Source: an uncultured Anaerolineales bacterium (lineage in GTDB: Bacteria; Chloroflexota; Anaerolineae; B4-G1). From it: a stretch of DNA of 64,000 nt. The stretch is from assembly GCA_964474655.1 (NCBI GenBank), contig CAYYTU010000008.1:10732-74731 (forward strand), written 5' to 3'. Shown here piece after piece: positions 33,294 through 45,356 of the stretch. The notes under the pieces are model-generated. The model did no database searches, was not told the origin of the DNA, and saw nothing but the letters and a program-made list of their open reading frames with translations. Position numbers and translations under genes: made by a program. Every line of letters starts with the position of its first letter. The first letter of the stretch is position 1.

Positions 33294-34706
33294 ATGAACC
33301 ATAATCACGTGGACAGACTTCGTCGGTTGCCCAGCGTGGATCGCTTGCTGGCCCGCGACGGGGTGAGCGCTTTGATTGAGAGCTTCGGCCGCCGACGGGC
33401 GGTGGACGCGCTGCGAAGGGCGCTGGATGGCGTGCGGAACGAGGTGCTCGCCGGCGCGGATGTGCCCGATGAGGCGGATATTGTGGCCCGTGCTGATACT
33501 TACCTGCGGGAGCAGCTGAGCCCCACACTGCGACCGGTGATCAACGCCACCGGCGTTATCATCCACACTAATCTGGGACGGGCGCCGCTCTCCGAGGCCG
33601 CACGGACGGCGATGGAAGCCGTCAGCCGCAGCTATGCTACGCTGGAGTACGACCTGGAGCTCGGCGGGCGTGGGCACCGCACCGTCCACGCCGAGCGACT
33701 GCTGTGCGAGCTCACAGGGGCCGAGTCTGCGCTGGTGGTCAATAACAACGCCGGGGCAGTGCTCCTGGCGCTGACGGGTCTGGCGCAAGGGCGCGGCGTC
33801 GTCATCTCGCGCGGGCAGCTGGTGGAGATCGGAGGAGGCTTTCGGGTGCCGGACGTGATGGCACAGAGCGGCGCCCACCTGATCGAGGTTGGCACCACCA
33901 ACCGTACCCATCGCTATGATTACGATCAGGCGTTGGAGGCGCCGGAGGCGGACGTGGCGCTTATCCTGCGGGCCCATCACTCCAACTTCCGCGTGGTGGG
34001 CTTCACCTCCGAGCCGAGCCTGAGCGAGCTGGTGGCGTTGGGCGAGGAACGCGGCGTGCGCGTGATGGATGACCTGGGCAGCGGCGCGCTGCTGGAAACG
34101 CGCGATTTTGGCCTGGCGCACGAGCCAACAGTGCAGGAGAGTGTGAGGGCTGGCGCGGCTGTGGTTTGCTTCAGCGGCGACAAGCTACTGGGCGGCCCCC
34201 AGGCCGGGATCATCGTCGGGCAAGCCGACGCCGTCGAGCCGCTGAAGATCCATCCTTTGACCCGCGCACTGCGCCCCGACAAACTCTGTCTGATCGGGTT
34301 GCAAACGACATTGCTCCACTACCTGCGGGACGAGGCTGTCGCGGAGGTGCCGGTCTGGCGGATGATCGCCACGCCTTTGGAGAAAATCCAGGCGCGGGCG
34401 GAGGCGTGGCGAAAGGCGCTTCTTGAGATTGGCGCTGCGGTCGCCGTCATCGAAGGTCAGTCGACCGTCGGGGGGGGGAGCCTGCCCGGCGAGACGTTGC
34501 CTACGATGCTGGTCGCACTTGATGTGGCGGACCCGGACCAGCTGGCGGCGTCTTTGCGCGCGGCTGATCCGCCCGTCGTCGCACGCATCGTGGAGGATCA
34601 GTTGGTGCTCGATCCGCGCACGGTGTTGCCGGAGGAGGAAAAGACCCTGCTGCAAACAGTGAGGAAAAGTGTGGAAAGGATCAAGGTACAACGATCTGCA
34701 TCGTAG
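33294..34706 (+). CDS. selA: L-seryl-tRNA(Sec) selenium transferase
   Basis: N-terminal LRRLPSVDRLL, VINATGVIIHTNLGRAPL, VNNNAGA, SRGQLVEIGGGFR, EVGTTNRT, PLP lysine in FSGDKLLGGPQAG. Confidence 0.95.
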   Translation: MNHNHVDRLRRLPSVDRLLARDGVSALIESFGRRRAVDALRRALDGVRNEVLAGADVPDEADIVARADTYLREQLSPTLRPVINATGVIIHTNLGRAPLSEAARTAMEAVSRSYATLEYDLELGGRGHRTVHAERLLCELTGAESALVVNNNAGAVLLALTGLAQGRGVVISRGQLVEIGGGFRVPDVMAQSGAHLIEVGTTNRTHRYDYDQALEAPEADVALILRAHHSNFRVVGFTSEPSLSELVALGEERGVRVMDDLGSGALLETRDFGLAHEPTVQESVRAGAAVVCFSGDKLLGGPQAGIIVGQADAVEPLKIHPLTRALRPDKLCLIGLQTTLLHYLRDEAVAEVPVWRMIATPLEKIQARAEAWRKALLEIGAAVAVIEGQSTVGGGSLPGETLPTMLVALDVADPDQLAASLRAADPPVVARIVEDQLVLDPRTVLPEEEKTLLQTVRKSVERIKVQRSAS

Positions 34707-34818: not shown

Positions 34819-36042
34819 GTGAAGGAAGACCTGAATAGTTTGATGGCGGATCGTGGGCTGGACGCAATTATCGTCGCGGGGCCGGCGCACGGCAACCCGG
34901 CGATGTACTATATGACCAACGGCGCTAACCTGACGCGCGGCTATGTGATCCAGAAGCGCGACCAGGAGCCGACGCTGCTGTGTTCTCCGATCGAGCGAGA
35001 GGAGGCCGCCGCCAGCGGACTGGACGTCGTCAACCTGAACAAGTACGATTTCGTCAGCATCCTCCACGAGAAAGGTGACCGGCTGGAGGCGAGCGTCGAG
35101 CTCTACCGCCGCATCTTCGACGATCTGAACGTGAGCGGGCACGTCGGGTTCTATGGCAAGGCGGACCAGGGGCGATCCTGGGTGCTGCTCAACGCGCTGA
35201 ACGAGCAGCTGGCGGATATTGAGGTCTACGGCGACTTCGATCAATCACTCATCGAGCAAGCCCGCGCCACCAAGGACGCCGCCGAGGCGGAGCGCATCCG
35301 GGAGATGGGCCGACGGACGTGTCTCATCGTGGAGCGTACCATCGACTTCTTGCAATCACACGCCGTCGAGGACGAGACGCTGATGGAGGACGACGGCACG
35401 CCCCTGACCGTCGGGCGCGTGCACGCGGCAATCAAGCGCTTCATCGCTGAGCAAGGCCTGGAGGACCCAGAGGGATTCATCTTCGCCATCGGGCGCGACG
35501 CGGGTATTCCTCACAGCAAAGGTACCGCCGAGCACATCGTCACACTGGGTCAATCCATCGTCTTCGATATCTTTCCGTGCGAGGCCGGCGGGGGATACTT
35601 CTTCGATATGACCCGCACATTTTGCCTGGGCTATGCCCCGTCCGAGGTCGAGCAGGCCTATCAGCAAGTGCGCGAATGCGTGGCGATGCTGGTCGAGGCC
35701 TACGAGCCGGGGGCCGAGACGTGGCATTATCAGCAGTTGGCGTGCGATTTCTTCGAGGAGCGCGATCATCCCACCGTCGGCAGCGATACCACGGCCGAGC
35801 AAGGCTACGTCCACAACGTGGGCCATGGACTGGGGCTGGCAATCCACGAATCGCCGCGCTTCAGCGACACGCCCGATAATACCGACGTGCTCTCGCCGGG
35901 TCACATCTTCACCTGCGAACCGGGGCTCTACTATCCAGACCGTGGCTTCGGCGTCCGCCTGGAGGATGTGATTTGGATCGATGACGACGAAGTCGTTCAC
36001 AACCTGACCGATTTTCCGAAGGAATTAGTGATTGAGATGTAG
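34819..36042 (+). CDS. M24 (Xaa-Pro) peptidase family protein
   Basis: RATK..E, IPH, FDIFP, DMTRT, HNVGHGLGL.IHE, TCEPGLY, GVRLED. Confidence 0.9.
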   Translation: MKEDLNSLMADRGLDAIIVAGPAHGNPAMYYMTNGANLTRGYVIQKRDQEPTLLCSPIEREEAAASGLDVVNLNKYDFVSILHEKGDRLEASVELYRRIFDDLNVSGHVGFYGKADQGRSWVLLNALNEQLADIEVYGDFDQSLIEQARATKDAAEAERIREMGRRTCLIVERTIDFLQSHAVEDETLMEDDGTPLTVGRVHAAIKRFIAEQGLEDPEGFIFAIGRDAGIPHSKGTAEHIVTLGQSIVFDIFPCEAGGGYFFDMTRTFCLGYAPSEVEQAYQQVRECVAMLVEAYEPGAETWHYQQLACDFFEERDHPTVGSDTTAEQGYVHNVGHGLGLAIHESPRFSDTPDNTDVLSPGHIFTCEPGLYYPDRGFGVRLEDVIWIDDDEVVHNLTDFPKELVIEM

Positions 36043-36082: not shown

Positions 36083-37099
36083 ATGACACGTATTTTGGCG
36101 ATTGAAACATCTTGCGATGAGACCGCCGGGGCTGTGATTGAGGATGGGCGGCGGATTCTTTCCAACGTCGTCGCCTCGCAAATTGATCTGCATGCGCAGT
36201 ACGGTGGGATCTTCCCGGAGATGGCCTCCCGCGCCCACGTCGAGGCCATCGTGCCTGTGATCGAACAGACGATGGAGGAAGCACACCTTGGCTTTGACGA
36301 TCTGGATGCTGTGGCCGTGACCTATGGCCCCGGGCTGGCCGGGTCGCTGCTGGTAGGGCTCAACGCGGCCAAAGGCCTGGCGCTAGGCCGGGGCCTGCCG
36401 CTGCTTGGGATCAACCACCTGGAGGCGCACATCTATGCCCACTGGCTGGAGGTGGAGGGTGAAGGTGTGGCTCGGGGCGAGCTGACCTTCCCGCTGCTTT
36501 CGATGCTCGTCTCCGGCGGCCACACCGAGCTGACCTTGATCCACGACCATGGCGATTACGAGTACCTGGGAGGCACGCTCGACGATGCAGCCGGCGAGGC
36601 TTTCGACAAAGTGGGGCGCTTGCTGGAGCTCCCCTACCCTGGCGGCCCGGAGATCGAGAAGGCGGCGCGCCGAGGCGATCCACAGGCCTTCGATTTTCCC
36701 CGCGCCTGGCTGGATGATACCTTCGATTTCAGCTTCAGCGGGCTCAAGACCGCCGTGCTGCGCAAAGTGCAGAAGTTCAGCGATCTGCCTCGCGGCCGCC
36801 TGCTGGCCGACATGGCAGCCAGCTTCCAGGCTGCGGTGGTGGACGTGCTTTCGGCCAAGGCAGCCCGGGCGGCAGAGACCTTCGACGTGACCGCCGTGCT
36901 GCTCTCCGGCGGGGTCACGGCCAACCAGACGCTGCGCGCGATGACAGTCGAGCGAGTCTCTGTCCCGGTCTATTATCCTCCGATCTTCCTTTGCACCGAC
37001 AATGCCGCGATGGTCGGCGCTTGTGCGCATCGCCACTTTGTCAACGGCGAGCGGGACGGCTGGGACCTGGACGTGGAGACTGGGTTGCGGCTGATGTGA
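36083..37099 (+). CDS. tsaD: tRNA N6-threonylcarbamoyltransferase TsaD
   Basis: LAIETSCDET, PEMASRAH, GPGLAGSL, NHLEAH, VSGGHT, DDAAGEAFDK, FSFSGLKT, TDNAAM. Confidence 0.97.
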   Translation: MTRILAIETSCDETAGAVIEDGRRILSNVVASQIDLHAQYGGIFPEMASRAHVEAIVPVIEQTMEEAHLGFDDLDAVAVTYGPGLAGSLLVGLNAAKGLALGRGLPLLGINHLEAHIYAHWLEVEGEGVARGELTFPLLSMLVSGGHTELTLIHDHGDYEYLGGTLDDAAGEAFDKVGRLLELPYPGGPEIEKAARRGDPQAFDFPRAWLDDTFDFSFSGLKTAVLRKVQKFSDLPRGRLLADMAASFQAAVVDVLSAKAARAAETFDVTAVLLSGGVTANQTLRAMTVERVSVPVYYPPIFLCTDNAAMVGACAHRHFVNGERDGWDLDVETGLRLM

Positions 37100-37133: not shown

Positions 37134-37805
37134 ATGATGGTAGAGACTGACCGCGCATCTGCGAGAGACGACTATGCCACGGACGTAGGCCGGGTCACGG
37201 GCCCGGTTCACGCCGGTCGCGGCGACGTGATCCACATTGAGCGCGTTGAGTGGATGGCCGATCGGGCCCGCCAGACAATTCGCGGCGCACTGCCGGAGGA
37301 TCGGACAGCGCGAGACGAATTGCAAGAGGTGATCGAGACGATCATTACGCTCCAGGCCGAGATGGCGGAATGGAAAGAGCTCCATCACCTGCTGCACGAG
37401 GTCTTGACGGCCTTCGGCCCATTTTACGCGCAGGTGACCACGCTGGAGGCCAATGGGCTGGATGTTTCCACCAGCCAGACTCTGTTGCGGAGCTGGCGGC
37501 CGTGCCAGGATGAGATCGGCCTGCTGGTCGACTTTGCAGCCGATGTGGAACACATCGGACAACCGTTCCGCCGCGATGACCAGGTTCTGCGTGGGGAGCG
37601 CTGGGCCGTGGAGATGGTTGCGCTCCAACGGTTGCTGGAGGATACGCTGAAGGAGGAACGGCCCAGCCCGGGTAGTGTGGTGGAGCTAGCCGAGGAGTTC
37701 AACGGCGTCTGCCAGCGTTATCTGGGCTTGGCCGACCGGAGGCTGCGGGGTGTGGTTGGTAAGTTACAGCGCGTATCTACGCGCTTGTTGGGGGGCATAA
37801 TATGA
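37134..37805 (+). CDS. Helical protein of unknown function with N-terminal GPVHxGxGD motif
   Basis: GAGGAG SD; 223 aa; ATGA overlap with the next gene. Confidence 0.8.
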   Translation: MMVETDRASARDDYATDVGRVTGPVHAGRGDVIHIERVEWMADRARQTIRGALPEDRTARDELQEVIETIITLQAEMAEWKELHHLLHEVLTAFGPFYAQVTTLEANGLDVSTSQTLLRSWRPCQDEIGLLVDFAADVEHIGQPFRRDDQVLRGERWAVEMVALQRLLEDTLKEERPSPGSVVELAEEFNGVCQRYLGLADRRLRGVVGKLQRVSTRLLGGII

Positions 37806-39286
37806 GCGAATTGCTGGAGGCCATTCAACGGCGGCATCAGGAGGCATTGGACCAACTGCAGCAGGATGAAGTAGACGAGTCCTTCCTAGAGAGCATCCAC
37901 GTTCTGCTGGACGATCTGCGCCAGGCCGGGGCCCTGGTCCCCGATCCGGGCGAGCGCGGTCAGCTGCGGGCCTTGATGCGCTTCTGGGCCAACGTGATCT
38001 ACGATCGTACCGGCGCCTATCCCGATACCACACTTCAGCCTCTTGATCCCGCTCGCGCCCGTCCGTTGGCCGAGCCGGCCCCGCGTCCGCGTGAAAGGAA
38101 GACGCCGTTCGACTGGCTACTTGTGGGTTCGGTGGGCTTGATTCTGTTGTTGAGCGTTGCTTTGGGAGTACTTTGGCTAAGCCGGGATGGTGTTTCACAC
38201 GTTTCGGCCACGCCGACGCCTACCCCTCCCCCGCTCCCGGTCAGCGAGCTCGTCATCGGCGAAGCGCCGGTAGAGACCGGTGATGTAGTCAGAACCCGTG
38301 ACGTCTTCTGCTATGGCGTGCCGGAGATTGTGAGCGTCCTTAATCTGGAGGACACCAGGCCGGAGACGCGCTGGCGCTGGGAGGTGCGGCGTGGCGACGA
38401 GGTGGTGAACGCGCAGCCGGAGCAGCGTTGGAAGGGCGATCTTGATGTGCCTTTGACGGTCCTGAGCGGCGATGACGGCGGCGTCGAGCCGGGCCGCTAC
38501 GAGTTTCGCGTCTACGTGGACGACCAGCTGGTGGAGGCGCGGGTATTTCGCGTGCTCGAGACTGCGCCCCGGATCACCGATCTCCGGGTGGCGGATGTGC
38601 CAGAGCCAAGCGATGCTGATCCTGGCGATCAATTTGGCGCCGGCACGCGCGTGATCTATCTGACCTATCGCTATGAAGGGTTCTGTCCGAGTCTGGAGAT
38701 ATCCCATCGCCTTTACCATCAAGGGGATGTACTTCGGGAGAAAGTCAAGGCGTGGGATGGGCCGCCTCAGGGTGAGCGCCAGGTGATCTTCCAGGCGTTG
38801 GACGAGGAGCCGTTCCCGTCCGGCGACTATGCGGCGGTCGTAGAGTTAGCAGGGCGGGCGCAGATTGAGGAACAGACCCAGAAGGCCTCGTTCACCATCG
38901 GAGAACCAGAGCCGGAGATCACGCCGTCCTTCGGTGACGTCACCATCGCGCTGGGCGTGGGGCCGGATGGCACGCCGATTCTCCCGGTCGAGGAGACGTC
39001 GTTCGATTGGAACACAAAAGTCGTTTACGCCATCTTCGAGTACGCCGGGATGCGCGATGGCCTGAGCTGGTCGGCGGTGTGGGCGCGCAATGGGCAGGAG
39101 GTTGCCCGTCAGGAGGGCTTGTGGGATGCGGAGGCCTTTGGCGCGCAGGGCACGCGCTGGGTCGCTTACTACGATGAGCAAGGGTGGACGCTGCCCGGTG
39201 GCGATTATGCCGTCACGCTTCTCATCGACGGTGAGGCTCAGCGCCGACGCGAGTTCAATATTCGTTATTACGTGACCAATCCGTAG
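37802..39286 (+). CDS. Single-pass membrane protein: N-terminal helical domain, TM, Pro/Thr linker, three beta-sandwich-like repeats
   Basis: TM WLLVGSVGLILLLSVALGVLWL; ATPTPTPPP linker; three repeats with F..G...(I/V)Y, W...G and pG.Y. Confidence 0.85.
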   Translation: MSELLEAIQRRHQEALDQLQQDEVDESFLESIHVLLDDLRQAGALVPDPGERGQLRALMRFWANVIYDRTGAYPDTTLQPLDPARARPLAEPAPRPRERKTPFDWLLVGSVGLILLLSVALGVLWLSRDGVSHVSATPTPTPPPLPVSELVIGEAPVETGDVVRTRDVFCYGVPEIVSVLNLEDTRPETRWRWEVRRGDEVVNAQPEQRWKGDLDVPLTVLSGDDGGVEPGRYEFRVYVDDQLVEARVFRVLETAPRITDLRVADVPEPSDADPGDQFGAGTRVIYLTYRYEGFCPSLEISHRLYHQGDVLREKVKAWDGPPQGERQVIFQALDEEPFPSGDYAAVVELAGRAQIEEQTQKASFTIGEPEPEITPSFGDVTIALGVGPDGTPILPVEETSFDWNTKVVYAIFEYAGMRDGLSWSAVWARNGQEVARQEGLWDAEAFGAQGTRWVAYYDEQGWTLPGGDYAVTLLIDGEAQRRREFNIRYYVTNP

Positions 39287-39305
39287 GAGATAATAGGAGC
39301 AGACG

Positions 39306-39746
39306 ATGGCTGAGCGTCAGGGCGAACGCGGCGACAAGTTCGAGACCCACATCGGCACGGTAAGCGGGCCGGTCCATACCGGACAGGGGGATCTGCTGGT
39401 TGACCATTGGGACGCGGCGCACGGTGTGTCTCAGGCAGAAATAGCGCACCTGAGGGGGCTTTTTGAGAATCTGCGCGCGCAGGCGGCGGCCGAGGCTCCC
39501 ACCGAGTTGGAGGAAGAGGCGCAGGCGCAAGTGGATGCGCTGGAGAAGGCTGTCATCTCCGACGAGCCAGACGTGAACGCGATGAAGCGCGTGCGCGATT
39601 GGTTCGTCGAGCAGCTGCCCTCGGCCGCTGGCGCGGTGACCTCCTTGTTGGTCAACCCCATCCTGGGCAAGCTAGTTGAGACCACGGGCGAGCTGGCGGC
39701 CGATGAGCTGAAGCGCTTGCTCGGCGTGAATGTCGAAAAATCTTGA
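39306..39746 (+). CDS. Small helical protein with N-terminal GPVHxGxGD motif
   Basis: AGGAG SD; 146 aa; C-terminal amphipathic/hydrophobic helices. Confidence 0.85.
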   Translation: MAERQGERGDKFETHIGTVSGPVHTGQGDLLVDHWDAAHGVSQAEIAHLRGLFENLRAQAAAEAPTELEEEAQAQVDALEKAVISDEPDVNAMKRVRDWFVEQLPSAAGAVTSLLVNPILGKLVETTGELAADELKRLLGVNVEKS

Positions 39747-39770
39747 CAGAACCCGCCTCTGTGTTAAGAT
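39743..39770 (+). promoter_or_regulatory. sigma70-type promoter of rnpB
   Basis: TTGACA-N16-TAAGAT with an extended TG, 12 nt upstream of the RNA. Confidence 0.65.
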
Positions 39771-39782
39771 AAGATTGAGTGG

Positions 39783-40174
39783 TGCCCAAGTCGGACGGGC
39801 GATCGCGTCTTGGTCATTGTGCCAGGCGAGGAAAGTCCGGGCTCCACAGGGCATGGCGCTGGGTAATCCCAGGTCGGGGCGACCTGACGGAAAAGGGCCA
39901 CAGAAAAGTAGACAGCCGGGCCGGGTTCCGCCTGGCTTGGTGATGGTGAAAAGGTGGTGTAAGAGACCACCGGCGTCCGCGGTGACGCGGGCGGCCGGGT
40001 AACCCCCGCCAAGAGCAAGGCCAAGCAACGAGGGCGAGAGGTGGCCCGCCTCGTTTGAGCCCCGGGTAGGCCGCTAGAGGCGGCGGGTAACCGTCGCCCC
40101 AGATAGATGATCGCTGCCCTGTGCTGCGTAAGCGGCTCAGGGCACAGAACCCGGCTTATCGGCCGACTTGGGCA
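39783..40174 (+). ncRNA. rnpB: RNase P RNA (type A)
   Basis: P4 signatures GAGGAAAGTCCGGGCTCC and ACAGAACCCGGCTTA; AGAGCAAGGCC; terminal P1 TGCCCAAGTCGG/CCGACTTGGGCA. Confidence 0.97.
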
Positions 40175-40384: not shown

Positions 40385-40954
40385 TCAAATCTCGACCGCT
40401 TCGCACTTGAACGTCTTGAGCTGGTCCGCCTCCTCGCGCAACTGCTCGACCAGCCTTGGCACGCGCTCGGCGGCGTCCTGGGCCCCCAGCGCCTGCAGAC
40501 GCACCAGCTCGGTCATCACGCCGTCGATCTCGTTCGCCAGGCCCACCAGCTGCGCCTCGACGCGATCCAGCTGCGTCGAGACCGCCTCCAGCTTGGCGAT
40601 GCGCCGCTGGAGCGCCTCGCGCGATTCCTCCCTCATACTCCCGTCGGGTGAGTTCGTCATCGGTGCGGGCGATGGTCTGCTCCAGTTGCTGCAGATCGCC
40701 GGCCAGGTCCGATTGCGATTGCGTGACCAGCCGATAGTTCTCCAGCGTCGTCATCCGCTGGCAGAGCGCGTAGGCCTGGTCGACCAGCCGGTCGATCTCG
40801 TCGCGCACCGGCTGGAGCGCCCGACGCACCGGCGGCGGCGCCGACGACAGGCTGTTGAAGAGGCTGACCTGCGAGCGCTCCAGGCGGTCGAAATGCTTCT
40901 GGAACCGCTGGGCCATTCGATGACGTCGAGCACGCCGCGGACTTTGTTGAGCAT
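40385..40954 (-). pseudogene. Fragmented coiled-coil protein gene
   Basis: AQRFQKHFDRLERSQ...TRREYE (one frame) continues as ESREALQRRIAKLE...AVEI in another frame at about 40630. The SD-preceded ATG 40954 is out of frame with the body. Confidence 0.6.
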
Positions 40955-41905
40955 ATCGTATCTCCTCTTGGTAACCTTGGTAGCGGTCTCATCTTCGGCG
41001 TGGATCTCCAGGCGCCGGTAGCTTGCTTTCTCGACGACGCGCTCGTCGCCGACCAGCGGCGGGATCGGCGCCGGAGGCGATAAGAGATCGGGCAGGGGCA
41101 CCGCTGGCTCATCCTGTAAGCCGCGATCCGTGACCTCGAAGCGCACCCGCGACGTCAGATCCAGCGAAAGCGGCGTCACCGATACCACCCGGTCCACCAC
41201 AATCGCCCGCACGTCCGAATCCATTTCTGCCTGACGGGGATCCTCGATCATCTTGTAGCCGGGACGCCCCTCGCCGTTGTCGCGATCCGGCGGCAGCGGG
41301 ATGAAGTAGCGCCGCCGCGAGAGCCGCGTGAGCCGCCAGGGCGTCTGCAGCTTGGCGGCGTCCGGGATGTTGACGTTGATCACGTCGACGTCGTGAGGCA
41401 TAGCGTGCGTCAGCAGGTGTTGCGCGAGCCAGCGCACGAAGGCCCGCGAGGCCGTGTAGTCGACGCCATCCTTGCCCCTCAGATGATGCTCCGCGTCCAT
41501 CTCCAGCGAGACCGCCATCGCCGGGATGCCGAAGGCGCTCGCCTCCAGCGCGGCGCCCACCGTGCCGGAGATCGTCACCTCGATGCCCAGGTTCGCGCCG
41601 AAGTTGACGCCGGAGATTGCCAGCGCCGGTGTGCGCGGCGCCAGCTCCACCACGCCGTGATCGACCGCCAGCGCCGGGCTTGCATCGACCGCGTAGGCGG
41701 CGACCTCCTGGCCATTGACCTCGCGATGGGCCGGGCGGATGCGCCCCGATACGTCGCGGGGCATAGAGCGTCCTCCGCCGGACCACTGGCGATCCGGCGC
41801 CACGACCAGCACCTCTCCTAAAGGCAAGACGGCCTCCACGACGGCCCACAGGCCGCTGGAGTCGATACCATCGTCATTTGTGACCAAGATAAGTGGTTGC
41901 TCCAT
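40751..41905 (-). CDS. surE: 5'/3'-nucleotidase SurE with an abnormally long C-terminus
   Basis: LVTNDDG, APDRQWSG, SGVNFGAN, SGTVGAA, INVNIP, SVTPL. Confidence 0.9.
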   Translation of the reverse strand: MEQPLILVTNDDGIDSSGLWAVVEAVLPLGEVLVVAPDRQWSGGGRSMPRDVSGRIRPAHREVNGQEVAAYAVDASPALAVDHGVVELAPRTPALAISGVNFGANLGIEVTISGTVGAALEASAFGIPAMAVSLEMDAEHHLRGKDGVDYTASRAFVRWLAQHLLTHAMPHDVDVINVNIPDAAKLQTPWRLTRLSRRRYFIPLPPDRDNGEGRPGYKMIEDPRQAEMDSDVRAIVVDRVVSVTPLSLDLTSRVRFEVTDRGLQDEPAVPLPDLLSPPAPIPPLVGDERVVEKASYRRLEIHAEDETATKVTKRRYDMLNKVRGVLDVIEWPSGSRSISTAWSARRSASSTACRRRRRRCVGRSSRCATRSTGWSTRPTRSASG

Positions 41906-41920: not shown

Positions 41921-42805
41921 CTACTGCGCCGGCACCCAGCCCTCGTCGACCACCATCTGCTGGCCTTCCTCGCTCAACGCGAAGTCGATGAAGTCCTGGG
42001 CCATAGGTTGGCTCAACGGCCCGGTCATAAACAGCAGCGGGCGCACCACCGGGTAGGATCCATCCTGGGCCGTCTCCTCGGACGGCGTCACCCCGTCGAT
42101 GGTGATGAGCTTGATGTCCATCTCGAAGTGCCCGAAGCCGATGTAGCCGATGGCGTTGTCGTTTTCGGCCACCATCGCGGCCACGTCGCTGGCGGCGACA
42201 GCCGTCTGCAGGTTGGGGGCGGCCGGGTCCTGCTTATCCAGCACGATCTTATCGAATGCGCCGCGCGTGCCGGAGTTCTTCCCACGCACCACGACCATAA
42301 TCGGTTGATCGGGCCCGCCGACCTCGCTCCAGTTGGTGATCCGCCCCAGGTAGATGTCGCGGAGCTCCGTCAGCGCCAGATCCTCCACCGGGTTGGAGCC
42401 GTTCACCACCATCGCGATGACGTCGGCGGCGACCTGGTGCTGGGTGATGCCCTCGGCCTCCTCGTCGGTCAGTGCCCGTGAGGCCATGCCGATATCGACC
42501 GTGCCGTCGTGGATCGCCTCAATGCCGACGACGCTCCCGCCGGCCGCGATGTCCAGCGTCACATCGGGATGTCGCTCCTGGAACACCTCGCCCAGCTGAT
42601 GGGCCAGCGGCTGGAGCGTGGTGCTGCCGGCGAACGTGATCTCGCCGGCGATGTCCGTCGGGGTCGGCTCCGGCGTCGGCGTCGATCCGCCGCAGCCGGC
42701 GACCAGCCCCGCGATCAGACCGGCGAGCGCCAGGTTCAGCAGCGTGCGTAGCCAGGAAGCCGATGAACCGCTTGCGGATACGTTAGATCGCCACGTCGTT
42801 ACCAT
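41921..42805 (-). CDS. pstS: PstS-family phosphate-binding lipoprotein (single domain)
   Basis: Lipobox VAGC, AGSTTLQPL, GGSVVG, DIGMASR, SGTRGAF, YPVVRPL. Confidence 0.85.
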   Translation of the reverse strand: MVTTWRSNVSASGSSASWLRTLLNLALAGLIAGLVAGCGGSTPTPEPTPTDIAGEITFAGSTTLQPLAHQLGEVFQERHPDVTLDIAAGGSVVGIEAIHDGTVDIGMASRALTDEEAEGITQHQVAADVIAMVVNGSNPVEDLALTELRDIYLGRITNWSEVGGPDQPIMVVVRGKNSGTRGAFDKIVLDKQDPAAPNLQTAVAASDVAAMVAENDNAIGYIGFGHFEMDIKLITIDGVTPSEETAQDGSYPVVRPLLFMTGPLSQPMAQDFIDFALSEEGQQMVVDEGWVPAQ

Positions 42806-42977: not shown

Positions 42978-45356
42978 TCAGGCCACAATGGGTGCGTTTA
43001 TCTGATCGTCGTTCCCAAACATCTCTAAATCGATCTCCTCGGCCACCACGGCCTCTTCAACTCCTTCAGCGCCTGGTCGATTGATAGGCAGCACAAACGT
43101 AAACGTAGACCCGCGATCGACCTCGCTTTCGGCCCAGATTCTCCCACCGTGGAGTTCGACCAGCTTCTTGGTGATCGGCAGCCCCAGCCCGGCGCCCTCA
43201 AAATCGCGACTGCTGGAATTATCGACCTGCGTGAATTCCTTGAAGATGTGCACCAGCTCATCCTCGGGGATGCCGACGCCGGTATCGCTGACGCTTATCT
43301 CCACCCCGGGCTCCACGCGCTCCGTGTTGGTGTTGAGCGCCTCCACCACCCGCGCTCGCACCAGGATGCGCCCGGCCTCCGTGAACTTGGCGGCGTTGGA
43401 GAGCAGATTGAGCAGCACCTGTCGCACCCGCCGCTTGTCGGCGCGGATCATAGGCAGCTTCGAGGGGACGTCCATCTGAAGCTCGACCGGCTTCTCCTCG
43501 ATCATTGGCTTCACCGCCTCCACCGCGCCCTCGACGATCGCCGGCAGCTCGACGTCCTCCACATCGAGTCGCATCTTGCCGGCGTTGATCTGCGAGATGT
43601 CCAGGATGTCCTCGATCAGCGCCAGCAGGTGCTGTCCCGATTCGTAGATGAAGCCCAGGTCCTGCTCCTGCTTGTCGGTGAGCGGCCCATCGAGGCCGTT
43701 GAGCAACACCTTCGAGAAGCCGATGATCGTGTTCAACGGCGTGCGCAGCTCGTGGCTCATCACAGCCAGGAACTGCGTCTTGAGCCGGTCGACCTCGGCC
43801 AGGTGCTCGGCCGTGCGTCGCTGCTGGTCGTATAGCCGCGCGTTGTGCACGCCGGTCGCGAGCTGATCCGCCAGGGTGTTGAGTAGCTTCACCGTGTCGG
43901 GGTCGAAGGCTTCGGGCTGGCAGCATTGCACGTCGATCGCGCCGATCGTCGCCCCGCCGACCAGGAGCGGGATCGCGGCCGCCGAGGTCGTGTCCATCAG
44001 CAGCGGCGGCTTGAGGTGCGTCGATGCCGTCCGCGCATTCTGAACGACCTGCGGCTCGCCGGTCGCCGCGGCGATCCCCACCGGCGACTTCGAGCCCAGC
44101 GGGATGCGAAGCCCGCGCTGCGTGAGCTCCTGACCCGCCTCGCCGACGGCTTGCTGTAAAACGGCCACATCGGATCCGGGCTCGATCAGGAAAACGCCCA
44201 CGTGGCAGGCCTCCAGGCGCTGCTGTATTTTCTCCATAGAGCGCTTCAGGATCACGTCCATCTCCAGGCTGGACGAGACCGCCTCGGCGACCGCGGCCGT
44301 AGTCACCAGCTCGCGTGTCCGGGTTTCGATCTTGGCCTCCAGGTTGGCGTACAGATCCTGCAGATCGGTCACCATCCGGTTGAACGCCCGCACCAGCAGG
44401 CCGACCTCGTCCTTCGCGTCGACGGCAGCGGGCAGCTCGACCTCCTTCAGATCGCCCTGAGCCACGTCCTCGGCCGCCGTCGAAAGCCGGTGAATGGGCC
44501 GGGCAATGGAGCGGATGATGACCACGTTCAGGCTGCTCAGTAGCAGCGTGGTCAGCAGCGTGCTGCCCACCATCACGAGCAGCCCCGTGTTCGTGATCTG
44601 CTTGATGTCCGTGGTCGGGCGCACCAACAGCAGCTCCGTCGGCGTCGCGCCCAGGTTCACGGACAAGGCCTGCCGGTAATGCCCCTCGCCCCAGCGACCG
44701 GCGGCGTCAAACGGCAGCCCTTCCCGCGTCTCGACGTGGGCGCCGCGAATGCTCAGGCCCAGATCGGTGGAGAGCTGATACTGCGACAGGATCTGTCGCA
44801 GCTCCGTCTCCAGGTCTGTGCCGATGACCACGGTCCCGGCGCCGTCGGGCATCGCCGCGCGCCGCAATAACAGCAGCCGGTCGTCGACGGCCCGCACGAT
44901 CGGGCGTCCCACCTCCGCCAGATTGAGCATCGACGATTCGTGGTAGAGACTGGAGAGCATCAGGTTGGTGCGCGCGACGCCTCGGTCGTCGTAAATCTGG
45001 ATCACGGAGAGACCGAAGCGATCGCGCACTACCACGGCCCGATTGTTGAGGGTGCTCAGCGTGGTCTCGGTCTCTTGCTGCACCGCGTCGATGACCTGGG
45101 GGTCGTTCGCCAGGAGCGTTGCTGCGGTATCGACGTTGTCCACGCGCTGGCGCAGCGCCTGGACGACGCGATCCGCCTCGGCCGCCATCTGCTGATTCAA
45201 CAAGTGGTTCCGCGTGAGCGCCGTCCCGCCCAAGAAAGCCAGTGTGCTGCCCAGCAGCGAAAGCAGCATCAGCCCGATGCTGGGCACGAGTAGCTTGGCA
45301 CTCAATGAGTGAATGTTCCAGCGGCGATAGAGGCGCCGCAAGAGTGAATAAAGCAT
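42978..45356 (-). CDS. Membrane sensor histidine kinase (TM-sensor-TM-HAMP-GAF-HisKA-HATPase)
   Basis: HAMP ARPIHRL...DEVGLL, GAF, MSHELRTPL, NLLSNAAKFT, DTGVGI, GAGLGL. Confidence 0.93.
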   Translation of the reverse strand: MLYSLLRRLYRRWNIHSLSAKLLVPSIGLMLLSLLGSTLAFLGGTALTRNHLLNQQMAAEADRVVQALRQRVDNVDTAATLLANDPQVIDAVQQETETTLSTLNNRAVVVRDRFGLSVIQIYDDRGVARTNLMLSSLYHESSMLNLAEVGRPIVRAVDDRLLLLRRAAMPDGAGTVVIGTDLETELRQILSQYQLSTDLGLSIRGAHVETREGLPFDAAGRWGEGHYRQALSVNLGATPTELLLVRPTTDIKQITNTGLLVMVGSTLLTTLLLSSLNVVIIRSIARPIHRLSTAAEDVAQGDLKEVELPAAVDAKDEVGLLVRAFNRMVTDLQDLYANLEAKIETRTRELVTTAAVAEAVSSSLEMDVILKRSMEKIQQRLEACHVGVFLIEPGSDVAVLQQAVGEAGQELTQRGLRIPLGSKSPVGIAAATGEPQVVQNARTASTHLKPPLLMDTTSAAAIPLLVGGATIGAIDVQCCQPEAFDPDTVKLLNTLADQLATGVHNARLYDQQRRTAEHLAEVDRLKTQFLAVMSHELRTPLNTIIGFSKVLLNGLDGPLTDKQEQDLGFIYESGQHLLALIEDILDISQINAGKMRLDVEDVELPAIVEGAVEAVKPMIEEKPVELQMDVPSKLPMIRADKRRVRQVLLNLLSNAAKFTEAGRILVRARVVEALNTNTERVEPGVEISVSDTGVGIPEDELVHIFKEFTQVDNSSSRDFEGAGLGLPITKKLVELHGGRIWAESEVDRGSTFTFVLPINRPGAEGVEEAVVAEEIDLEMFGNDDQINAPIVA

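Follow-up and report, generated by a model that had tools for sequence, protein, structure and literature searches.

A candidate motif-coupled membrane signalling operon in Anaerolineae with a short N-terminal motif common to two of its proteins

Bacterial amyloid signalling sequences (BASS) are motifs of about 25 residues that are shared by the products of adjacent genes, where they are found at the C-terminus of Bell effectors and at the N-terminus of NOD-like receptors (NLRs); in composition, G, N, Q, V and I are over-represented and K, P and L under-represented (Dyrka et al. 2020, bioRxiv 10.1101/2020.01.06.895854). The antiphage system Bab/Agp of E. coli (BASS11) is an amyloid-motif pair with a non-NLR sensor, in which Agp has the architecture TPR-GreA/B-C-PIN (Ibarlosa et al. 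2024, bioRxiv 10.1101/2024.11.07.622273). In Podospora anserina, HET-S combines an N-terminal HeLo domain with a C-terminal double-repeat motif and is paired with the cytosolic NACHT-WD receptor NWD2 (summarised in Dyrka 2020). Another type of coupling is mediated by the effector-associated domains (EADs), which fold into Death-like alpha-helical domains 60-90 residues long and whose copies in neighbouring genes match best; among these systems, EACC1, a small component of the membrane that has a helix rich in Gly, is paired with a caspase (Kaur, Burroughs, Iyer, Aravind 2020, PMC7159879). Amyloid is not mentioned in that study, and a 2026 survey of STAND proteins contains nothing on transmembrane (TM) or amyloid variants. 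As known so far, motif-coupled (amyloid) signalling joins cytosolic NLR-type sensors to effectors with a C-terminal motif. Here we describe three genes, g1, g2 and g3, from an uncultured Anaerolineales bacterium (GenBank assembly GCA_964474655.1, contig CAYYTU010000008.1, positions 10,732 to 74,731; this stretch of 64,000 nucleotides is referred to as the window, and its numbering is used throughout). The products of g1 and g3 share a short N-terminal motif, and an earlier note, made from the sequence alone, had proposed that they belong to an amyloid-motif signalling cassette built around a membrane receptor.

On balance, the three genes probably constitute an operon for membrane signalling in which the shared N-terminal motif couples the parts, following the logic of NLR-effector pairs. 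The simplest account is that a membrane receptor and a g3-domain protein are coupled through the motif as a homotypic element, since the matching of motifs across the g3 family, the NLR-like partners, the gene fusions, the company in which the motif is found and the joint loss of g3 and the g1 motif all point in this direction. The operon consists of three close-packed open reading frames (ORFs) on the + strand, at 37134-39746, with the following features:

37134..37805, + strand: g1, ORF of 223 aa (222 aa if the second ATG at 37137 is used)
37167..37232, + strand: motif copy 1, g1 residues 12-33, DDYATDVGRVTGPVHAGRGDVI; the conserved block runs to about residue 38 (HIERVE)
37802..39286, + strand: g2, ORF of 494 aa, predicted single-pass membrane protein
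38114-38179, + strand: TM helix of g2, residues ~105-126, hydropathy maximum 2.67
39306..39746, + strand: g3, ORF of 146 aa
39333..39398, + strand: motif copy 2, g3 residues 10-31, DKFETHIGTVSGPVHTGQGDLL, near-invariant in the g3 family with this motif type (class A)
39615-39689, + strand: C-terminal Gly/small-residue hairpin of g3, residues ~104-128, conserved and moderately hydrophobic, AGAVTSLLVNPILGKLVETTGELAA

When the ORFs were re-read, the gene coordinates and the motif residues and positions reported in the earlier note proved exact. Its description of a translationally coupled single-pass protein between g1 and g3 was likewise borne out, both by an ATGA at 37802-37805, in which the stop codon of g1 and the start codon of g2 overlap by 4 nt, and by the presence of one strong hydrophobic segment in g2. 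In the window, g3 starts 19 nt past g2.

The operon resembles the BASS systems in that adjacent genes encode proteins with a common motif of about 25 residues, g1 and g3 being otherwise dissimilar. Furthermore, in the wider g3 family an NB-ARC/TPR protein with an N-terminal motif is paired with a small helical protein that has a single hydrophobic helix, the motif is repeatable and falls into several classes, of which class B resembles BASS2, and the hosts belong to filamentous phyla (Chloroflexota, Cyanobacteria and Actinomycetota). Unlike the BASS systems, g3 carries the motif at the N-terminus and the hydrophobic helix at the C-terminus, which is the mirror image of Bell, and no similarity of its domain to Bell or Bab could be detected. 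The class-A motif belongs to none of the families BASS1, 2, 3, 6 and 9 by profile, the receptor side in the window is split into g1 and g2 and contains no NTPase, and the NB-ARC partners of the relatives are membrane-spanning proteins with ectodomains. Bell and HeLo-like death domains start with a hydrophobic helix that has an acidic residue at position 2-3 and precedes a helical bundle, whereas the only hydrophobic segment of g3 is C-terminal (104-128) and its N-terminus is the polar motif. The layout thought to be new in the earlier note, with both motifs N-terminal and a receptor side (g1 and g2) without an NTPase, was upheld by this comparison.

Similarities and differences were also seen with the other systems. 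Bab/Agp is alike in being a motif pair that works without an NLR sensor; however, its motifs are C-terminal in Bab and N-terminal in Agp, and it consists of two genes without a membrane receptor in a prophage defence island. Its fibrils and abortive infection are experimental results, whereas the window system is known from sequence and models alone. The logic proposed for HET-S/NWD2, in which oligomerisation of the receptor nucleates a beta-solenoid that templates the effector motif and frees a membrane-inserting helix, is the one that we propose here, but that system is eukaryotic, with an N-terminal HeLo domain, a C-terminal double-repeat motif and a cytosolic receptor. As in EAD coupling, homotypic modules in adjacent genes would connect sensors to effectors in multicellular bacteria, and one protein with the class-A motif (P0113) carries EAD7. 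In contrast to the folded EADs, the motif of the window is a disordered Gly-rich segment of 25 residues. The operon also differs from the EACC1-caspase pair, since g3 and six g3-like proteins match no NCBIfam or Pfam model, including that of EACC1, and the operon contains no caspase.

The shared motif and the conservation of the operon

In a six-frame scan of the whole 64 kb window, the pattern GP[VIL]H.G.GD gave exactly two matches, at the motif sites of g1 and g3. The BLASTP alignment of g1 with g3 was limited to 22 residues, 11 of them identical and 17 positive (E 1e-6), and a profile-profile comparison of the two families aligned only the 29 columns of the motif (probability 94%, E 9e-8). 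In their DNA, the two copies agree at 39 of 66 bases and use different codons for 8 of the 11 identical residues. The similarity is thus kept at the protein level and does not stem from a recent copying of DNA, in agreement with the claim that the motif is the only similarity between g1 and g3 and is under protein-level conservation. Recent duplication or gene conversion as the origin of the motif was ruled out by the differing codons and by the existence of two old, separately conserved families. Chance is excluded because the motif pair is kept in 11 distinct loci of other metagenomes or metagenome-assembled genomes (MAGs).

The consensus of the g1 motif is GDYETQVGDVSGAVHTGRGDIIHIE, and that of the g3 motif is GDTFETHIGSVSGPVHTGKGDIxIEHW. 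The g3 copy is almost invariant, although the remainder of g3 is only about 60% identical among the homologues. The 22-residue pattern first proposed holds as written, with the conserved block being a little longer. In the AlphaFold models, the confidence score (pLDDT) is below 50 for residues 1-28 of g1 and 1-36 of g3, and confident helical domains adjoin both segments. According to the models, the motif thus lies outside the folded domains of both proteins and would be unstructured in the monomer; a place inside a globular fold, which would have spoken against a signalling motif, was not predicted. A motif unit of 13 residues (SGPLHTGKGDILI) is duplicated in two g3 homologues (P0062 and P0064), and exactly 11 motif residues (SGAVHTGRGDI) are deleted in the g1 homologue P0016. 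Gain and loss of whole units of 11-13 residues is consistent with a repeat-like, rung-like element.

The gene order g1-g2-g3 is kept in the same 11 distinct loci, all of Anaerolineae type, with variable flanks (tsaD/rnpB, rpsT/gcvH or an ECF sigma gene). The ATGA overlap of g1 and g2 was found in every relative with a cleanly readable g2 start (8 loci, in addition to the window), and the gap between g2 and g3 ranges from 9 to 26 nt across the relatives. The motif is absent or degenerate in about one quarter of the g1 homologues. Six loci with such g1 homologues were looked up, and all of them lack g3 or contain only a remnant of it:

L044/45: g1 homologue P0016; g3 absent
L048/49: g1 homologue P0044; g3 absent
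L052: g1 homologue P0042; g3 absent
L051: g1 homologue P0031; g3 absent, with an rnpB-like sequence directly after g2
L046/47: g1 homologue P0045; g3 reduced to a 5' stump of 32 aa, MMTERRKGDSFEMHTDSVSGPVQVDTLEEADK*
L050: g1 homologue P0005; g3 gone except for the last ~28 codons

The synteny of L050 is that of the window itself (M24 peptidase, tsaD, g1, g2, rnpB), and its g1 is 72% identical to that of the window. The g1 motif is intact in all 11 loci with g3 and lost or degenerate in all six loci without g3 (or with a remnant), with no discordant locus (uncorrected Fisher test, p = 1/12376). The remnants and the differing flanks indicate at least three independent losses. By losing g3 and the g1 motif together, these loci provide a natural evolutionary experiment of unusual clarity, which makes the coupling directly testable.

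The three proteins, the g3 domain family and its partners

Public metagenomes and MAGs contain 46 homologues of g1 and 45 of g3, none of which has a Pfam domain or an informative name; the named records are from Anaerolineae, Anaerolineales, Thermoflexia or Chloroflexota. Neither g1, g2 nor g3 had a match above threshold in Pfam, NCBIfam or PADLOC, which also revealed no P-loop NTPase (NB-ARC/NACHT) in the three proteins. For g1 and g3, a profile search identified no sequence relative in PDB, and Foldseek gave no significant match in PDB.

The product of g1 is a cytoplasmic protein, modelled as a long helical bundle (residues ~28-221, pTM 0.77). The bundle contains invariant or near-invariant residues, H83, H84, H87, W120, R121, C123, Q124 and C192 (HHLLHE, WRPCQ and a later Cys), and the conserved His and Cys residues suggest a putative metal, haem or redox site. 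The best Foldseek matches of g1 were designed haem-binding four-helix maquettes; these are not significant and were not used as evidence. For g2, the alignment of 11 homologues and the hydropathy profile indicate a cytosolic helical N-domain (1-~95), a Pro/Arg-rich juxtamembrane stretch, the TM helix and three extracellular beta-rich repeats. A LysM insertion follows the TM helix in the g2 homologue of L004, where an ECF sigma gene is a variable neighbour.

The model of g3 displays a confident helical bundle at residues 42-~115, with confidence dropping over the last helices. The invariant residues W99, F100, P105, G109, V111, P118, G121 and G128 are clustered at the C-terminus, which is the most conserved part of the family. 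Hydropathy reaches a maximum of 1.35 at residues 106-124, as compared to 2.67 for the TM helix of g2. The C-terminus may be a conditionally membrane-inserting, Gly-zipper-like hairpin; a hydrophobicity lower than in a constitutive TM helix is what would be expected of conditional insertion. The same segment gave weak matches to the NAC/membrane-binding region of alpha-synuclein (E 0.15) and to apolipoprotein L1 (E 0.17), which are not significant and were not used as evidence.

A genome scan with the g3 alignment identified 37 loci, with hosts in Chloroflexia, Thermomicrobiaceae, Thermoflexales, Cyanobacteria (Elainellaceae, Chroococcidiopsis, Nodosilinea), Actinomycetota and Rhodothermales. 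At these loci, the g3-like proteins are for the most part also about 145 aa long and start with another Gly-rich motif, and the motif is N-terminal in g3 and all of its free-standing homologues. At 15 loci beyond the window type (Chloroflexota, Cyanobacteria, Rhodothermales), a large neighbouring protein bears the motif class of the g3-like protein itself; in the loci inspected, the partner gene is located directly upstream of the g3-like gene. The motif classes of these loci are:

Class B, I.G.VSGQVAVG..I.Q: L018, L021, L027, L030, L031, L032, L035, L036, L037, L038, L041
Class C, SQIVIGD.NNV: L019
Class D, IGDGA..V..GK.I: L022, with the motif at the C-terminus of the partner
Class E, VG.HN.QI...HG: L026, L029

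A matching partner was found wherever upstream DNA was present; the contig-end loci L016, L020, L023, L039, L043, L034, L040 and L015 were left out, as were L024, L033 and L042, which have high-GC overlapping frames, and none of these was counted as negative. The two partners change motif class in step, with at least five classes involved: the mean alignment score of own pairs was 66.5, as compared to 42.2 across loci, and none of 20,000 permutations reached the own-pair score (p<5e-5). Altogether, neighbouring gene products share a short motif at 11 loci of class A and at 15 loci of the other classes.

The partners are usually ~830-930 aa long, with extremes of 541 and 1470 aa. Those that were checked carry NB-ARC (L027, E 4.5e-12; L030, E 2.9e-8), together with a TPR-like region, one TM helix and ectodomains (PAN, CARDB or a lectin-like fold); a cyanobacterial partner has adhesin-type tandem repeats. 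Membrane-spanning NB-ARC proteins with an N-terminal short motif are encoded at 5255-7924 in L027, 5225-7906 in L030 and 1653-5456 in L026, and an NLR-type NTPase joined to an ectodomain is unusual in itself. Judged from the sequences, the g3 domain is usually, or was ancestrally, partnered by a membrane-spanning NB-ARC protein. That a TM receptor and not an NLR is adjacent is therefore right for the window but not for the g3 family at large, from which NLRs are not absent. Comparison of g1 and g2 with the NB-ARC-TM partners by hhalign revealed no homology beyond the TM/low-complexity region. For lack of such residual homology, the idea that g1 and g2 are a degraded NLR was set aside, and the two proteins were treated as an analogous replacement of the NB-ARC-TM receptor.

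The g3 domain is also found fused, as the C-terminus of a DUF4062/TIR-like protein (L017), a CHAT protein (L025, E 1.4e-26) and a third large protein (L028). A motif of class-A type (FHGPVTGPVHAGSGDIRID and similar) precedes the fused domain in all three, with a second, internal copy in L025 and L028; in L025, the two copies flank the CHAT domain. In L054, separate neighbouring genes encode a small protein with the motif and an N-terminal domain of L025 type, a split that links this locus to L025 by fusion or fission.

An exhaustive profile search for the class-A motif among 1.84 billion representative proteins yielded 26 matches at E<1e-3, which comprise members of the g1 and g3 families and, in addition to these, include:

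P0105: NB-ARC protein
P0104: Mrr_cat/NA-iREase1 and STAND NTPase protein
P0113: EAD7, TM and Ig protein
P0115: Mrr_cat protein
P0108: motif-TM-ectodomain protein
P0106: DUF4097 Toastrack protein, in which HTGxGDVxV (HTGxGD[IV]x[IV]) recurs as tandem rungs

The motif and the g3 domain are thus associated with NB-ARC, STAND, CHAT, EAD7 and DUF4062 proteins. The tandem rungs in P0106 indicate that the sub-motif can be a turn of a beta-solenoid. Literature searches with the motif strings found no relevant paper.

Hidden Markov models were built from samples of the published motifs of five of the eleven BASS families, BASS1, 2, 3, 6 and 9 (PMC8086366 supplement). Four of five class-B partner motifs scored 12-13 bits against BASS2, a level reached by 0-1 of 200 shuffles, and the fifth scored 4.8 bits. 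Outside the window, P0102 (residues 71-135) and P0094 contain the class-A motif followed by a tandem BASS3/RHIM-like segment (KYQVDAPDAQVGVIGD..GGIHF). In P0102, this segment scored 12.3 bits against the BASS3 sample profile (0 of 200 shuffles), so that two different signalling-type motifs are present in one protein. On sequence grounds, class A appears to be a motif of the general BASS type, which adjoins a BASS-like motif in at least one protein.

Proposed mechanism and alternative explanations

Motif-mediated coupling of the NLR type is well supported, and we propose the following mechanism for the window operon. The g2 protein would span the membrane, with its three extracellular beta-rich domains serving as the sensor. 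Synthesized in step with g2 through translational coupling, g1 would probably be seated on the cytosolic domain of g2, and the two proteins together would replace the membrane-spanning NB-ARC partner that the g3 domain has in other bacteria. Upon activation, the disordered N-terminal motifs of g1 would cluster and pair with the motif of the same type in g3. For such direct contact, the mode with the best precedent would be that of amyloid signalling, in which an assembly of beta-arch or beta-solenoid type acts as the template for further copies. The g3 motif, on folding, could then free the Gly-zipper-like hydrophobic hairpin at the C-terminus from the helical bundle and allow it to enter the membrane, and the output may be membrane permeabilisation, growth arrest or death. 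The binding of g1 to g2, the direction of signalling from receptor to g3, the role of g3 as a membrane-active effector and the biological trigger are all presumed in this scheme.

It is possible, but not probable, that the operon represents the first cell-surface receptor to signal by prion-like templating, composed of a two-chain TM sensor without an NTPase, a new amyloid motif and an effector that is a "mirror-image HeLo", with sister systems in which TM NLRs read extracellular cues. In such a prion-like surface receptor, a single molecule would combine surface-receptor signalling with immunity or death signalling of the NLR type. If the proposal is correct, bacterial NLR-like signalling would reach extracellular sensing, and the operon would provide a compact three-gene system for asking whether templating needs nucleotide-driven oligomerisation. 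The new elements are a widespread effector-like domain family (g3) of opposite polarity, a motif family that travels with NB-ARC, STAND, CHAT, EAD7 and DUF4062 proteins, usual partners in the form of membrane-spanning NB-ARC proteins whose ectodomains are of adhesin or lectin type, and a clade in which the NTPase would have been replaced by a split, NTPase-free receptor.

Several observations weigh against this proposal. Among the residues of the motif, G, V, I, H, T and D are frequent, and the g3 copy also has a conserved Lys; Asn and Gln are absent, however, and the g3 copy retains a Pro, whereas BASS motifs are depleted in Pro (Dyrka 2020). It is internal and not terminal in some proteins. 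Against the BASS profiles, the class-A motif scored only -1.6 to 7.4 bits overall, with 2-7 bits for BASS2 and BASS9 and nothing for BASS1; because of these low scores, class A is placed outside BASS1, 2, 3, 6 and 9. In this respect, the comparison went against the earlier note, whose view of the motif as one of the NLR-effector signalling type is sustained by neighbour sharing, class switching, co-loss and NLR-type company but not by kinship to the profiled families. The near-invariant g3 copy contrasts with a g1 copy that drifts more, and finer pair-specific co-variation inside a motif class was not detected (p 0.16-0.18). In structure, the fold of g3 did not significantly match HeLo, Bell or Bab (Foldseek against PDB, best E 1.1), and the profile search against PDB sequences found no solved member of this kind, such as Bab, the HeLo domain of HET-S or MLKL. 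Both g1 and g2 are intact in 6 of the 6 loci without g3, so that g3 is an accessory output and cannot be all that the receptor pair is for. Finally, the GC content is uniform across the region (62-63%), the flanking genes look housekeeping (tsaD, rnpB), no mobile-element or defence genes were seen adjoining the cassette, no defence island is apparent and PADLOC gave no match, so a role in defence or death is not indicated by the context.

Some of these features would also be compatible with the same coupling by a different structure, namely stoichiometric pairing of beta-strands in a heterodimer or small, adaptor-like oligomer without self-propagating templating. The lack of Asn and Gln, the conserved Pro of the g3 copy, the internal position of the motif in several proteins and its place outside the profiled BASS families fit this explanation, as does the strong conservation of the g3 copy, which would be expected of a precise interface, and the use of the sub-motif as a rung of the globular Toastrack fold. 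We nevertheless consider it unlikely, since a length of 22-29 residues, short hydrophobic strands punctuated by Gly and disorder in the monomer are typical of a signalling amyloid motif (Dyrka 2020), the sister class B resembles BASS2, and the motif grows by whole units. Contact between the motifs would not be needed if both of them bound a third site, such as the cytosolic N-domain of g2, so that g1 and g3 would compete in a partner switch, or if both were recognised by one protease or degradation machinery, as a cleavage site or degron. The co-loss of g3 and the g1 motif would also be expected if the g1 motif merely competes with g3, the two motif copies of L025 flank a CHAT protease domain, and proteolytic release of effectors has been proposed for related conflict systems (Kaur et al. 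2020, PMC7159879). A third site would, however, have to co-evolve each time that one of the at least five motif classes switched in both partners, class-B systems have no separate g2, and there is no protease in the window operon or at most loci, which makes this explanation quite improbable.

The operon could also be a housekeeping module for envelope sensing or stress, in which g1-g2 would be a surface sensor, for example of the cell wall or of cell-cell contact in the filament, g3 a membrane-associated regulator (anti-sigma- or PspA-like) and the motif a docking tag. This would account for the housekeeping neighbours and native base composition, for the inheritance in Anaerolineae, which looks vertical beside rpsT/gcvH or tsaD/rnpB, for the LysM insertion in one g2 and for the retention of g1-g2 without g3. 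Some g3-like proteins also had sub-threshold matches to an anti-sigma model (E 0.003-0.01), but these are far under the cut-off (16-18 bits as compared to 100; for g3 itself, 15.9 bits against model NF052375), and the operon has no sigma or DNA-binding component. Moreover, the g3 domain and the motif accompany NB-ARC, STAND, CHAT, EAD7, DUF4062/TIR-like and Mrr_cat proteins, which is the hallmark repertoire of conflict systems. Given this company, we regard an envelope module as an unlikely explanation, and retain NLR-type coupling of a membrane receptor to g3 as the favoured one.

Flanking genes and the DNA beside rnpB

The genes around the operon were assigned from sequence patterns, without a family search:

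33294-34706: SelA-like protein
34819-36042: M24 Xaa-Pro peptidase-like protein
36083-37099: TsaD
40751-41905, - strand: SurE-like protein
41921-42805, - strand: PstS-like protein
42978-45356, - strand: HAMP/GAF histidine kinase

A foreign island was ruled out by the uniform GC content and the housekeeping neighbours. Directly 3' of g3, at 39787-40174 on the + strand, is a bacterial RNase P RNA (class A, 248 bits), and a promoter-like site, TTGACA-16-TAAGAT, at 39743-39770 overlaps the g3 stop codon. The rnpB gene is also located 3' of the cassette or of its g3-less remnant in L001, L002, L046 and L050 (8481-8931 in L001 and L002). Past rnpB, the DNA is wholly different, with a 1979-aa AAA_22 protein in L001 and PIN, UvrD and SLFN_AlbA_2 in L002, although the two loci have the same DNA upstream. 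This divergence beyond rnpB marks the spot beside the gene as variable and defence-island-like.

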